A DNA stretch of 64,000 nt from Anaerobacterium chartisolvens (GCF_003337415.1 NZ_QPJT01000024.1:1-64000), one strand, 5' to 3'. Counted from the stretch's first letter, positions 29,201 through 38,200 are shown. Numbers: made by a program.

Positions 29201-32200
29201 CGTTTCAGTCACCATATCGGCAGTCTTCCTTCTGAAGTTAGCTTTTAATAGTTCCGTATCAAGAATAACTTCGTACACTTGCTGAAGCTCAGTCAGAGTA
29301 AAGAGTTCCGGCATTAGATTAAAAGCTATATCTGTGTACTCTATCTTGCTGCGGAGCCTATCAATTCCATATTCTATGATTTTTGCATGGTCAAAAGCTA
29401 TTCCATTTGATTCAATAATTTCTCTTTGTATTTTTGTTACTTTCCCTTCAACAGTTTTTACTGTCTTTACAATTGCAGAAAGGATATCCTCCTCGTTTGA
29501 CAAACTCAATTTGAATAACCGTTGAAGTATATGCCCTTTTTCAGTTACTGTCTTTTGCTCCTGATATAATTTACAAGATACTGTAAACCATTTTGCATCG
29601 TCTGCATCGTCGCTTGCCTTAATATCAAGAGTAGAACTATCAACCAGTGACATATATGAAGCACTTATCACTCTTGTGCGTGGATCTCTGGCTACATCTC
29701 CCCATGTATAAAGTTGTTCCATATATATGTCATCAATGTTGGTTTCCTCTTTCAGTTCCCGCCCCGCTGCTTCATCCAAACTTTCATTCATCTGCACAAA
29801 ACCACCAGGAAGAGCCCATTGACCCATGTATGGATGATCACCTCTTTTAATCATCAATAGCTTTAAAACTTTTTCTGGCAGCTTTCTGTAGTTTTTCTTT
29901 TCTTCTTCAGTTACTGTAAAAATCAGCATATCTACCGTTACCGATGGTCTCTCATATTTACTCGCATCATATGTTGTTAAGAATTGCTCCTCGGTAAGTC
30001 CCTGTTTATTTATCATTTTATTTTCACCCATTATTATCACCCTTAATTTGTTATTCGCTCAATGATATTATCAATTTGTTAATATCATTATATTACCATT
30101 TATATTTTGTTGTCAATATATTTTTATTAATTTGTAAAATTCTCTGTATGTATTATAATTGTTATTAACAAAAGTAATCGAGGTATTAACTTATGCAGGT
30201 TGAAATAATGAAAAAACTAGATGTTATTGAAAAAGAGAACAATATCAAAATCCTCTATGCAATTGAATCCGGTAGCAGAGGTTGGGGTTTTGCATCCAAA
30301 GACAGCGACTACGATGTACGTTTTATATATATCCATCCCACTGACTGGTATTTATCGATTGAAGATAAAAAGGACTTTATTGAGGTTCCAATCAATGATT
30401 TGCTGGATATAAACGGTTGGGATATCAAAAAGGCATTGCTGCAGTATAAAAAGTCAAATCCTACATTACTGGAGTGGCTCAGTTCCCCCATCGTATACAC
30501 GGAGGACTCCAGTGCAGCACAGAGAATGAGAGACTTATTACCTTACTACTTCTCCCCTGTGCCAACAATTTACCATTACCTTCATATAGCCAGAAACAAG
30601 TATGAAGAAATTATGAGTACTGAACAGGTCAAGATCAAACGATATTTTTATATCTTAAGACCTATTCTGGCATGCATGTGGATTGAGAAGAACAATACCA
30701 TGCCTCCAATGGAGTTCAGCAAGCTAATGGCAGCACAACAACTTGATGGTATCTTGGTCAATGAAATCAATAAGCTGCTTGAGAAAAAGACTTCTGGTTT
30801 GGAAATTGACATTGAACCTAAAAGTCCAATTATAACTGATTTTCTAAAAAGAAAAATTTACTATTATGAACAATATCTCAAAACTGTTAGAAAAGAAAAA
30901 ACATCTGATTATAATTTATTAAATGCCTTATTCCGCGAAATACTTAAGGAAGTCTGGGGCGGTTAAGGAAAGGGGACACACCTTTCTGAACAAGAAGTAT
31001 TCCTTTTACGTTAAGGAGTTTCCCCAAATAAACAAAGGAGCAACTACATGGATATACAGTCTATAAAAGAAAAGCTAAATTCTAGCGAATATGAGTTTCT
31101 TAGAACAGATCCACACCTTGGGAAGAATATATTAATCCTTACAACTGCAGGGTCTATTGCGTATGGAACAAATGTAGACACCAGCGATATTGACGTCAGA
31201 GGCGTTACAGTAGAAACAAGTCAGGATATCATGGGCTTATCGAGCTTTGAACAGTTTGAAGACAGGATAACTGACACCGTCATCTATGGCCTTAAGAAAT
31301 TTATTACTCTATGTTTAAACAGTAACCCAAATGTTCTTGAAATACTAGGAACCAGACCTGAACATCTCCTTATAATAACCGAAGAAGGCAAGCTTCTAAG
31401 AGATAATATTGACCTTTTCTTATCCAAGAAGGCTATCCAGAGTTTTGGCAATTATGCAACAGCCCAGCTCAGAAGACTACAAAATGCTCTGGCAAGGGAT
31501 AACTATCCTCAAGCCGAAAAGGAACAACATATATTAAACAGTATTCTAGGGCAAATGGATCATTTAAAAAGAACCTATAAAAGCTTTACTGATAACGATA
31601 TCAACTTATATGTTGATAAATCTGAAAAGGAAGAAATGGACACAGAAATATTTATTGATATAAGCCTGAAACATTATCCCCTGAGGGACCTTAAAAATAT
31701 CTATTCAGATATGAATAACATTGTGAAGGATTACTCCAAACTGAATCATAGGAACAGCAAAAAGGATGAGCTTCACCTTAACAAGCATGCCATGCACTTA
31801 ATCCGGCTTCTGGTTACAGGAACTGAGATCCTTGAAGGTAAAGGCATAAATACTTATAGAGAAAATGAACGCGAGCTTTTTCTAGATATCCGGAACGGAA
31901 AGTATAGTTACAACCAAGTTTTTGAAATGGTTGACGAGTATGAACGTAGGTTCAAATCGGCGGCCGAAAATACTTCTCTTCCTGATGAACCGGATTATAA
32001 GCGTGTCGAAGAATTAATGCTAGAGATTTACGGCAGAATATTGTTATAGTGTTATAATCATATTTCAATTTAGTTACAAATATTGACTTATGGTTTTGTC
32101 CAAGTATATTATGTTATGGTAAGATTTATATTAACTAATCAGGTGAAAGGAGTTTTTAAAATGACATCAACATTAAATTACGAGGTGCTTAGTTTATAAT

Positions 32201-35200: not shown

Positions 35201-38200
35201 GTGCGCAACTTATCAAGCAGCTTCCCAATGAGAAGGAAGTAATGAATGAAAAACAGAAAAAGCTTGCGCATAAATCTAAGGCATTGATTAAAGAACTTGC
35301 ATCCATTAGTCTTGAAATGGCACAGATGGTTGTATCAAAGCAAGGTGAAGACGAAGGCTTGCCTGGCTGGTTTATGGTTGATATCGTCCGTGACCTTCCA
35401 AGGCTGGTAGAAAGGAAAGAAGCATAAAACTATGGGAAAGAAAAAGATTGCTCCTCAAAATGATATTGCTTATGAAAAATATGTTCGAGGGTATAACATA
35501 ATAAAGCAGCACCCTATGTTTTCACCTCTTCTTTCTCACGTTCACGATGTTCGGAGGAAGGGTAACTTATGCCCTGAGAATGGTTGGGCAGTAATAACCA
35601 GAAACGGCTATCTTCATGTTCATCCTACAAGACGCGGGGACCCCCTGGAATGGGCTTACGTCATCGCTCACTGTCTGCTTCATTTAGGGCTTGGTCATTT
35701 TCATGATAAGGATGACACTATTAAGTGGAATACAGCCTGTGACTGTTTTATTGCCAGATTCCTGTCAGATATGAAACTGGGCCGAGCGCCATCAGATCTG
35801 CAATACGCTATTGATTTTTCTGCTCCTTCAGAGGAAAGGCTTTATAACGATTTTATCGAAAAGGGTATCCCCTCTTCACTTACTGGTTTTGGCACAGCAG
35901 GGTTGACCTGCGGTGATATGATTATGGCACAGGAGAAAACGGATTGGTCGGGACGAAAAATTGACTGGGTTGACTGTTTTGCCAAAGGTCTTTCAATGGC
36001 AGTAACAAGTGCAATTAATGTTGCTGCAGGTCATGAACCTTTTCTTGGAGCAGATAAGGAGTGCCTGACCCCTGCAGTTAGAGCAAAAAACTGGTTTATC
36101 AGCAGTTATCCTCTTTTAGGTGCTTTAGCGGCAAGCTTTACAATCATTGAAGATCCTGTTATCTGCACACGTATGGATATCTCAGTTGCAGCAGTTAATG
36201 CGTATATGAGAGAAATATATATGAATCCTGCTGCTGGACTGGATCTTTATGAATGTCGCTTTGTTATGGCACACGAATTGTTACATGTTGGTTTAAGACA
36301 TCAGGCAAGATGTCAAGGCCGTGATCCTTATTTATGGAATGTCTCATGTGATTACGTGATTAACGGATGGCTTGTTGAAATGGCGCTTGGAGAACTTCCT
36401 AAAATAGGCACCCTTTATGATCCAGAATTGAAGGGTTTATCCGCTGAAACAATATATGACCGAATTGCTGTCGATATCAGAACATTTAGAAAACTGGCCA
36501 CATTAAGAGGAATTGGGCTTGGAGATATACTTGAAAAAGATACTCCTGGCTGGTGGGCAATAGGCAATGGAGTAAGTCTTGATGATTTTTACCGCCGTTC
36601 CCTAAGTCAGGGTCTTTCCTATCACGAGGAACAGGGACGTGGTTATATACCAGCAGTACTCATTGAAGAAATACGAGCTTTAAGTCAGCCTCCTGTTCCC
36701 TGGGATGTCGAACTTGCTCAATGGTTCGATAATTATTTTTCCCCTTTGGAAAAAGTTCGTTCGTATGCACGCCCTAGCCGCCGTCAGTCATCGACTCCGG
36801 ACATACCTCGACCTCGTTGGATACCTGCTGCCGGTTCTGAAGAAGGTCGGACATATGGAGTTATACTCGATACTTCGGGTTCAATGGATCGTTCATTACT
36901 TGCAAAGGCATTAGGCACAATTGCCAGTTACAGTATTTCACGAGATGTACCTTTTGTCAGGGTAGTTTTTTGTGATGCTGCTACTTATGACCAAGGATAT
37001 ATGGCTCCAGAAGCTATAGCTGAAAGCGTGAAGGTAAAAGGCCGTGGAGGTACAATACTCCAACCCGGTATTGATCTGCTGGAAAAGGCTGAAGACTTCC
37101 CTAAAGAGGGTCCGCTTTTGATTATTACTGATGGCTACTGCGAACCATTAAGGATACACAGGGATCATGCTTTTTTAATACCCAAGGGGAACAACTTACC
37201 TTTCATGCCAAAGGGAAAGGTTTTTAGATTTAGTTAGATCCAATATTCTTAATCAAATTAACAAACCCAGGTAACTTTTTACTTATATTCACACTTAAAA
37301 ATTTATAATTGATTTTTCAATGGCACAATGTAATTCTAATCGTCATCATCTCTACCTTCAGTGCAAAGCTCATCTAAGTATCCGTCATCAAGAGCTGAAC
37401 CTCTATTTTTATATGGAACCGAACGTGGTCTACCCATTTTATAATGTTTGCATGACTTTGGACCATAACAAAATGTTTCAAATCGATATTTTTTTATATC
37501 TTTATCAAAATCCCATTGACTTTTACTTAATATTCTTGCCCCTCTTTCCTCATATGTCTGTATAGATGGAGGCATCATTACCCATGGTGGCGGTAATGCT
37601 TCAAAATTTTCATTTACTCTTTCCAAAAGTTTTAAAGAACCTACTTTATAATAATCTGCAAATTCTCTTTCTTCATATTTTTTTGTCCATGCTGTTCCTT
37701 CAAGTATATCTCCTACCCGATATAATCCCTTTAACTGCTGTTTTTCAGAAATTGCTACTGTAAACTGTTTTTTAGAATCACAACTATACCCTTCAATAAA
37801 AAAATTGTACCCTAAATGATAATGGGTTCGATTATCTGTGAGATATCTCCAAACTCTCGTTCGAGGTTGAATAGATACAATTTTTCCTTGCCAATTTACT
37901 TTTGAAGAAGTATTTTCAGAAATAAGATTTATCATTCTCTATCCTTTACATATAACATTTTATAGGTATTATACCAATTCTCCATTAACTGTCAAATGCC
38001 TACTATTAGCCAAACCTGAAGCTTGCATGATAAATTTTTATATAGATAATTGGAAGGTGTTAATCAGGTTATCTTGTGTATATTATAGCTGCATATTTAT
38101 ATTGCGTTAGTGTCTTTCTTATAATACTGTAATTCTATTGAGTATCCTTCTACTGAAACACCAAATTTGTTCTCAGTTTTAATTTCCTTATAAAAGCTTT

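Follow-up and report, generated by a model that had tools for sequence, protein, structure and literature searches.

An rtcB2-prfH locus of Anaerobacterium chartisolvens with RlaP nucleotidyltransferase genes, a conserved mini-ORF leader and an AAA+/VWA-zincin gene pair

The 64,000-nt stretch of Anaerobacterium chartisolvens DNA analysed here (NZ_QPJT01000024.1:1-64000; hereafter "the window", meaning the whole of that stretch) carries the genes of the RNA ligase RtcB2 and of the release-factor homologue PrfH within a run of six genes, and it is this run that is described below. Calling of open reading frames (ORFs) in the window returned six co-directional frames on the plus strand at 30193-37237, just as an earlier note on this DNA had listed them. 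In order, they encode two RlaP nucleotidyltransferases (257 and 333 aa), RtcB2 (385 aa for the longest rtcB ORF, 32449-33606), PrfH (213 aa), an AAA+ ATPase (353 aa) and a VWA-zincin protein (601 aa), and the intervals between them measure 81, 399 (counted to the longest rtcB ORF), 8, 109 and 4 nt. The G+C content of the window averages about 36%, and the sign of the GC skew flips across 30-37 kb, as is expected of a plus-strand block set in a mostly minus-strand region. The rtcB2-prfH pair claimed in the earlier note stands, since the curated models TIGR03073, PRK09588 and TIGR03072 were all passed, and so does its 601-aa VWA protein with duplicated HExxH-like modules, in which HCLLH, HELLH and a metal-ion-dependent adhesion site (MIDAS) were seen. 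What the note called two divergent minimal nucleotidyltransferases are indeed two, encoded on the same strand, but they belong to the RlaP family (PF10127) and not to generic minimal nucleotidyltransferases.

RtcB2 reached 436.6 bits with TIGR03073 (cut-off 271.8) and 494.2 bits with PRK09588 (cut-off 407), which both model the PrfH-associated type of RtcB, and the HGAGR nucleotidyl-histidine region was found in it. The true start of rtcB is most likely at 32482, because an ATG with a Shine-Dalgarno (SD) sequence is conserved there across loci. PrfH, whose separation from RF2 had been in question, passed TIGR03072 with 247.7 bits (cut-off 166.65), whereas the RF1/RF2 models failed, prfB giving 111 bits against a cut-off of 370. 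The GGQ motif is kept (SGPGGQNVNKV), the 213 residues can be aligned to residues ~120-317 of RF2 only, release-factor domain 1 being absent, and the closest solved structures are PrfH chains (9mor and 7sa4, E ~1e-47). Work on the Escherichia coli orthologues has shown that, once the 16S rRNA of a ribosome is cut in the decoding centre, PrfH releases the peptide and RtcB2 seals the broken rRNA again (PMC9304027). The pair in the window resembles E. coli rtcB2-prfH (Tian et al. 2022, PMC9304027; Maviza et al. 2022, PMC9223846) in its families, as judged by curated hidden Markov models, in its gene order, and in the retention of GGQ and of the RtcB catalytic region, and its 8-nt spacing fits translational coupling. 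Unlike that two-gene operon, it is preceded by a leader with a mini-ORF and terminators and by two RlaP genes, and followed by the AAA-VWA-zincin genes; no leader is reported for E. coli rtcB2-prfH in the accessible literature on that operon.

Both nucleotidyltransferases clear the 23-bit cut-off of PF10127, a family that Pfam describes as "RNA ligase-associating Pol-beta". RlaP1 and RlaP2 are 25% identical across 106 aa only, and the Pol-beta GS...DxD motif is intact in each (GSRGWG..DSDYD in RlaP1, GSIAYG..TSDID in RlaP2). An orthologue of RlaP1 (52% identical) lies in a repair island of Gorillibacterium (locus L014) and an RlaP1-like pseudogene (72% identical) in L177, while orthologues of RlaP2 (79-81% identity) stand directly 5' of the rtcB2-prfH leader in L085 and L177/L178, so that an RlaP gene is found near the rtcB2 ligase gene in these two lineages as well as in the window. 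The family was named by Burroughs and Aravind in 2016 for its association with RNA ligases, and the Pseudomonas enzymes extend RNA 3'-OH ends by 1-2 nucleotides; the compatibility of this 3'-OH product with a ligase that uses 3'-phosphates has been flagged as an open problem (PMC12776372). The association of RlaP with RNA ligases is thus already known, and the window agrees with the published RNA-repair operons (PMC12776372) in encoding a PF10127 enzyme beside an RNA ligase and in its predicted role, the replacement of lost 3' nucleotides ahead of ligation. It differs from them in layout, as characterised RlaPs are encoded between rtcB1 and rtcA under RtcR control, whereas here two divergent paralogues lie 5' of RtcB2-PrfH in a separate unit. 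In the interval between RlaP1 and the divergent nrtR gene, promoter-like sequences were found on both strands: TTGACA-18-TATAAT on the minus strand (30116-30087), with 12/12 consensus matches, and TTGTAA-16-TATAAT on the plus strand (30132-30159).

The ATPase has intact Walker A (GPPGIGKS) and Walker B (LFLDE) motifs. With the MoxR-specific models AAA_3 and bpMoxR it gave 23.4 and 21.3 bits, respectively (cut-off 27 each), and one RefSeq homologue is named "MoxR family ATPase"; its nearest match among sequences of solved structures is the AAA domain of Midasin (E 1.8e-13). The VWA-zincin protein matches DUF2201_N (PF13203) with 93.2 bits (cut-off 23.2) and the DUF2201 VWA domain (PF09967) with 30 bits (cut-off 26.4). 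Its N-terminal zincin-like module (HCLLH, residues 80-84) lacks the catalytic Glu and its second module is canonical (HELLH, residues 281-285); HxxxH, HExxH and the MIDAS residues DTSGS...T...D are invariant in an alignment of 24 orthologues. An AlphaFold (AF2) model, with a mean predicted local distance difference test score (pLDDT) of 76.5, consists of two tandem repeats followed by a VWA fold. When this model was compared with the PDB by Foldseek, only VWA/MIDAS domains were matched and the N-terminal modules found no counterpart, and a sequence-profile search returned only a weak match to the minigluzincin MJ1213 (E 5e-4), so that neither search hinted at what the N-terminal modules do. 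PADLOC yielded no defence-system match among the six proteins, the ATPase giving a weak hit at the P-loop level only (IetA, 24 bits) and the other five none. The same order, an AAA+ gene and then a zincin-VWA gene, is known from the MoxR AAA+/metallopeptidase-vWA pair of jumbo phages, for which a role in virion assembly was proposed (PMC7824862). Residues ~216-600 of the VWA-zincin protein are matched by 288 phage records at ~25-28% identity, and the phage and most bacterial DUF2201 versions lack the 200-aa N-terminal degenerate zincin module that is present here. Nothing relevant on DUF2201 was found in the accessible literature.

The 399-nt interval between RlaP2 and rtcB is no empty spacer but a conserved leader, as became clear when it was aligned with the sequences that precede rtcB-prfH in other genomes. 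The -35 box ATATTGAC is conserved wherever the aligned locus sequence extends to it, and a leader profile matched nine lineages (nhmmer, E 1e-24 to 1e-59) and nothing outside those lineages and positions in the ~2.8 Mb of sequence compared. The leader precedes rtcB-prfH in Acetivibrio cellulolyticus L088, L086 and Pseudobacteroides L177/L178, and rtcB-prfH-(AAA)-VWA in the window and L085. It stands directly 5' of prfH-AAA-VWA in L170, where rtcB is absent, and directly 5' of AAA-VWA in L007 and L008, which have neither rtcB nor prfH there; in L005 the leader is accompanied by a scar at which 9 codons from the start of rtcB run into ~27 codons from the end of prfH. The mini-ORF is 11-12 codons long in all nine lineages, with one in-frame indel, and it ends everywhere in x-E-V-x-x-[LI]-TAA, in which E-V is invariant, the last residue is L or I and the stop codon is TAA. 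The same architecture emerged from nine independent minimum-free-energy (MFE) folds: a long-range helix P1 joins the SD box of the mini-ORF (CAGGUGA..GG) to an anti-SD-like box (CC.UCACCUG), the mini-ORF lies inside P2 and a variable hairpin inside P3, and the terminator T1 comes next. Compensatory changes were detected by RNAalifold in P1 (GC to AU in L008) and in P3, and the fold has a z-score of -3.2. Rfam gave no match above a gathering score in the window and only chance-level matches (E >= 0.46) in 31950-32500; no account of the leader was found in Rfam or the accessible literature, nor anything relevant there on terminators at prfH.

Since a promoter, a mini-ORF, a structured RNA and two terminators fill what had looked like a gap before rtcB, the six genes are predicted to form at least two transcription units, and the RlaP genes would be a separate one, because rtcB appears to have a promoter and a leader of its own. 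This leader is probably a reporter of translational state. Ribosome-mediated attenuation leaders are likewise built of a short upstream ORF followed by intrinsic terminators, and those of ribosome-protection genes in Firmicutes, reportedly described by Dar et al. in 2016, are said to place such an ORF and terminators before genes that handle impaired ribosomes. Unlike the attenuation leaders of Firmicutes, the present one has two tandem terminators and no predicted antiterminator that would exclude them. A simple ribosome-stalling antiterminator model was rejected, as a ribosome footprint on the mini-ORF leaves T1 folded in the eight lineages tried (L170 left out), with a T1 pair probability of 0.99-1.00 under every footprint constraint. 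The leader might instead be an independent small gene, yielding the 12-aa peptide and/or a small RNA that ends at T1, with the downstream genes expressed by leaky read-through only. Such a gene would be in keeping with the strength of T1 and T2, with the failure to find another pairing in which T1 opens, and with a mini-ORF that combines a strong SD with a peptide conserved at its C-terminus; however, the interval between T2 and the start codons is too short for a promoter, the leader keeps one orientation and lies ~100-370 nt 5' of rtcB, prfH or AAA, and it occurs nowhere else in the sequence compared. We therefore consider an independent gene clearly improbable.

Recurrence of the arrangement was assessed in eight clostridial lineages with a PrfH at least 60% identical to that of the window. 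A VWA gene, with or without AAA, lies directly 3' of prfH in four of them (the window, L085, L170 and L173), RlaP2 lies 5' of the leader in three (the window, L085 and L177/L178), and two, including the close relative A. cellulolyticus, have a bare rtcB-prfH. In Desulfosporosinus meridiei (L175) the order is WYL-335aa-Band_7-HEAT-PrfH-RtcB. The gap from prfH to AAA is 16 nt in L170 and 3 nt in L173 (Ruminiclostridium cellobioparum), and in L085 a deletion has removed AAA together with the first ~78 codons of VWA. From the deletion derivatives L005 (3770-3992), L085 (8209-8213) and L170 (247-353), the modules of the leader-rtcB-prfH-AAA-VWA operon appear separable. As RlaP2 upstream and AAA-VWA or VWA downstream recur in further lineages, the neighbours of rtcB2-prfH are not accidental, and the six-gene arrangement goes beyond chance.

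The earlier note had suggested that the six genes may be one unit not yet described. Its neighbours do recur beside rtcB2-prfH in other genomes, both RlaP2 and AAA-VWA, but no fixed six-gene unit exists, and rtcB is predicted to have its own promoter and leader. As for novelty, a nucleotidyltransferase beside an RNA ligase is the published definition of RlaP, and the accretion of accessory genes round the two-gene RFH-RtcB core, to which the window conforms, is already known as well (Burroughs and Aravind 2019, PMC6514570). That paper's list of accessory genes comprises a TPR protein, a non-RlaP Pol-beta nucleotidyltransferase, a ZnR protein and charged-helix proteins; unlike these systems, the window has nucleotidyltransferases that are bona fide RlaP by Pfam, and an AAA+, a vWA and a peptidase component, all of which are absent from the published list.

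Orthologues of the 601-aa protein, 54-95% identical, are present in Bacillota, Cyanobacteria, Acidobacteriota, Chloroflexota, Planctomycetota, Myxococcota and others. The ATPase gene lies directly 5' of the VWA gene in 74 of 80 genome loci; in five of the remaining six it was not detected (three of them at a contig end), and in L017 it lies ~2.5 kb upstream. AAA-VWA is thus a strict two-gene module across many phyla. A conserved third component characterises the MoxR-vWA-VMAP/beta-propeller ternary conflict systems (Kaur et al. 2020, PMC7159879); here bpMoxR stays below its cut-off, and no third gene, whether VMAP, beta-propeller or similar, recurs beside AAA-VWA in the 80 loci. When the neighbours at these loci were clustered and then annotated with Pfam, the recurring non-generic ones were RNA-repair components only: RtcB (7 loci), Band_7 (6), WYL-WCX (5), Tpt1 (4) and Ro60/TROVE (3-4), with Pnkp, Hen1 and RlaP also seen. 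A repair-type neighbour within 10 kb was counted at 12 of the 80 VWA loci, compared with none of 73 RF2 (prfB) control loci (Fisher p = 3.6e-4), which came from the PrfH-centred metagenome scan, the GGQNVNKV pattern being generic. In Paenibacillus durus, Hen1-Pnkp-Tpt1-ARH is divergent from AAA-VWA, and AAA-VWA-Hen1-Pnkp runs in one direction in L020. In the Gorillibacterium locus L014, Ro60-RlaP-Tpt1-TatD-R2K is divergent from AAA-VWA, beyond which come RtcB1 and WYL; the locus also has an NrtR that is 65% identical to the one encoded divergently from RlaP1 in the window. Beyond Bacillota, most AAA-VWA loci are stand-alone pairs. A neighbour-joining tree, drawn without bootstrap, placed all leader-linked VWAs in one clade and most repair-linked ones in one Bacillota super-clade; the links of AAA-VWA to Pnkp-Hen1 and to RtcB1-Ro60 are further separate events.

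In our judgement, these genes probably constitute a composite locus for the response to RNA damage, made up of two or more transcription units and set inside a ~30-kb RNA-repair/ADP-ribose island. The first unit would consist of RlaP1 and RlaP2, which may add 1-2 nucleotides to RNA 3'-OH ends if they behave like the Pseudomonas enzymes. The second, transcribed from its own promoter (~32083), would run from the leader through rtcB2-prfH to AAA-VWA; judging by family membership, PrfH would release the peptide from ribosomes cut in the decoding centre, and RtcB2 would rejoin the 16S rRNA. The AAA+ ring and its VWA/MIDAS-zincin partner are envisaged as an obligate pair in which the MIDAS grips a protein that is remodelled at the expense of ATP and cleaved. 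As the likely target we see either the attacking toxin or a protein that sits on the damaged ribonucleoprotein, and its removal might render repair possible or lasting. Because the leader is shared, we place AAA-VWA in the rtcB2-prfH regulon, with which it would be co-regulated through that RNA.

A more specific proposal, which we put forward as tentative and with the chances somewhat against it, is that AAA-VWA-zincin could be an unrecognised remodelling protease directed at ribosomes or ribonucleoproteins, a midasin-like analogue that clears an obstacle or ribotoxin together with PrfH/RtcB2 (elsewhere in Bacillota, with Pnkp-Hen1 and RtcB1-Ro60), while leaders with such a mini-ORF, as a new class of RNA, would detect that translation has failed and turn the regulon on. 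Midasin, a motor that carries a MIDAS, removes proteins from pre-ribosomes. Midasin/Rea1, CbbQ-CbbO and NorQ-NorD share with the pair described here an AAA_5-type motor and a VWA/MIDAS domain that grips a protein ligand, but they have no peptidase, and the likeness holds at the level of the AAA domain only; that of the ATPase to Midasin is one of resemblance and not of membership. By another explanation, AAA-VWA would activate or mature the repair enzymes, for example through Mn2+ loading of RtcB or Pnkp or through recycling of a stalled intermediate, and would not act on the damaged particle or the toxin. MoxR-type AAA+/VWA pairs are known chiefly for enzyme activation and metal insertion, CbbQ-CbbO activates Rubisco and archease serves RtcB likewise, and the pair is found with metal-dependent ligase or phosphatase systems (RtcB, Pnkp). 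Against this, the conserved HExxH zincin module argues for proteolysis, of which an activase has no need, the pair is kept under the leader where no ligase lies within 10 kb (L007, L008) and beside prfH where rtcB is missing (L170), and many AAA-VWA loci stand alone. An activase is, in our view, very unlikely.

Several points weigh against a joint response of the kind proposed above. RtcB2 genes lie, in the overwhelming majority of cases, in operons of just two genes (PMC9304027), and none of these neighbours was found at seven distant PrfH loci (39-48% identity, on metagenome contigs). About 68 of the 80 AAA-VWA loci (~85%), including cyanobacterial stand-alone pairs, have no repair neighbour, which argues for an AAA-VWA function independent of repair genes, and prfB neighbourhoods are an imperfect null for the test of such neighbours. 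As the leader-linked VWAs form one clade, the PrfH link would have arisen once and then been kept and eroded by deletions. The prfH-AAA spacer of the window (34257-34365, plus strand) measures 109 nt, compared with 3-27 nt in L173, L170 and L005, and contains a weak hairpin (ACATC/GATGT) followed by ATTTTT; it may be inserted sequence that loosens the coupling between prfH and AAA-VWA. Finally, constrained folding gave no terminator/antiterminator switch, so that regulated read-through of T1 and T2 has to be assumed.

Alternatively, RlaP, rtcB2-prfH and AAA-VWA could be independent modules hitch-hiking in one island, with AAA-VWA serving a general purpose unrelated to RNA damage, for example as a chaperone or in metal-cofactor insertion like NorQ-NorD and CoxD-CoxE. 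The absence of repair genes from most AAA-VWA loci, the heterogeneity of their neighbours, the bare rtcB2-prfH operons of close relatives, the single origin of the PrfH linkage and the mosaic nature of the window, which also holds Dnd, WYL, DUF429 and HD genes, agree with this possibility. It is at odds, however, with the retention of the leader before AAA-VWA after loss of rtcB-prfH (L007 and L008, with the deletion scar in L005), with prfH-AAA spacings of just 3-16 nt, with at least five separate dockings of AAA-VWA to three different ligase systems in Bacillota, and with the lack of repair neighbours at all control loci, and we hold it to be unlikely, if not strongly so.

RtcB2-PrfH has been treated as a self-sufficient two-gene operon, and no other system is known to reverse the damage that ribotoxins inflict on the ribosome. 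The repeated docking of a widespread and highly conserved AAA-VWA pair to three different RNA-ligase repair systems, together with its predicted co-regulation, suggests that RNA repair may need a protein-removal step, and the leader with its mini-ORF offers a first handle on how the rtcB2-prfH operon is switched on in Gram-positive bacteria. The features of the locus and of the adjoining island are collected in Table 1.

Table 1. Coordinates of annotated and candidate features in the window, listed from left to right.
Feature	Coordinates	Strand	Basis or remark
ADP-ribosylglycohydrolase	6699-7367	-	
Microbial PARG	7404-8291	-	
Second NrtR	8793-9695	-	
Radical SAM protein	11114-12358	-	
431-aa ORF of no assigned family	13426-14721	-	
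Second RtcB, RtcB1 type	14893-16107	-	
Band_7	16166-17218		
YrlA-like (Y RNA-like, tRNA-like) RNA candidate	17616-17714	-	40 bits, E 3e-7, below gathering score 69
Divergent promoter-like sites, nrtR (-) / RlaP1 (+)	30087-30159	both	consensus matches only
RlaP1, RNA-ligase-associated Pol-beta nucleotidyltransferase, 257 aa	30193-30966	+	PF10127, 307.5 bits, full-length
RlaP2, divergent RlaP nucleotidyltransferase, 333 aa	31048-32049	+	PF10127, 72 bits
Promoter-like site of the leader/rtcB unit, TTGACT-16-TATATT	32083-32112	+	consensus match; -35 box conserved
Structured leader RNA (P1, P2, P3, T1)	32138-32347	+	nhmmer, MFE folds, RNAalifold
12-codon mini-ORF (MTSTLNYEVLSL, then stop) with strong SD	32161-32199	+	present in 9/9 lineages
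Intrinsic terminator T1	32323-32348	+	stem invariant or G-U tolerant, 9 lineages
Intrinsic terminator T2	32396-32424	+	CCGTGGTTAC...CACGGTATTTTTATGCC conserved
RtcB2 RNA ligase	32482-33606 (longest ORF from 32449)	+	TIGR03073, PRK09588
PrfH (RFH), release-factor homologue, 213 aa	33615-34256	+	TIGR03072; 8 nt after rtcB
AAA+ ATPase, AAA_5 / MoxR-like type, 353 aa	34366-35427	+	AAA_5, 51 bits (cut-off 22)
VWA-zincin protein, 601 aa	35432-37237	+	PF13203 and PF09967; 4 nt after ATPase gene

The window from 5 to 37 kb is one large (~30-kb) RNA-repair and NAD/ADP-ribose island, with the six genes at its right-hand end. Its further content comprises an ADP-ribosylglycohydrolase (ARH), PARG, two NrtR, two radical-SAM proteins, the RtcB1-type ligase, two Band_7 proteins, a YrlA-like RNA, WYL, a 690-aa methyltransferase, Macro, NAPRTase and PncA, and ADP-ribose sensing may regulate islands of this kind. 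The 431-aa ORF was considered as a Ro60 candidate and rejected by BLASTP. The YrlA-like RNA, which has T-arm-like and D-arm-like elements, lies between the Band_7 gene and an unknown gene, near the second RtcB; ARAGORN found no tRNA in the window. The minus-strand run at 18950-30040, divergent from RlaP1, encodes NrtR, a PncA-like isochorismatase, NAPRTase, Macro, a radical-SAM-Nudix fusion, the 690-aa methyltransferase, Band_7, a 314-aa unknown protein and WYL-WCX. The WYL protein of this run is 66% identical to the one upstream of Band_7-HEAT-PrfH-RtcB in D. meridiei, and in Pseudobacteroides the genes of PARG, PnuC and an NadR-like protein are likewise divergent from RlaP2. Genes for R2K-type ATP-grasp, Thg1-like, AAA_33 kinase-like and TatD proteins recur by RlaP/RtcB/AAA-VWA islands (L085, 1956-4332, and L014, 3572-5349, both on the minus strand), and these may be further RNA end-healing components.

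On the 3' side of the VWA gene, the minus-strand segment at 37336-45823 holds ORFs without a Pfam match (199, 330, 252, 121 and 363 aa), an HD-domain gene, DUF429 and another WYL-WCX, and its content looks like that of a defence island. A Dnd phosphorothioation cluster follows on the plus strand at 46042-52080, consisting of DndB, a PAPS-reductase DndC-like protein, an SMC-like DndD-like protein, DndE and a class-V aminotransferase. Moreover, the minus-strand cluster at 52085-63759, which encodes HARE-HTH, Methyltransf_35 and HATPase_c_3 proteins, a 1727-aa protein and two large unknown proteins, may be a restriction or defence partner of Dnd.

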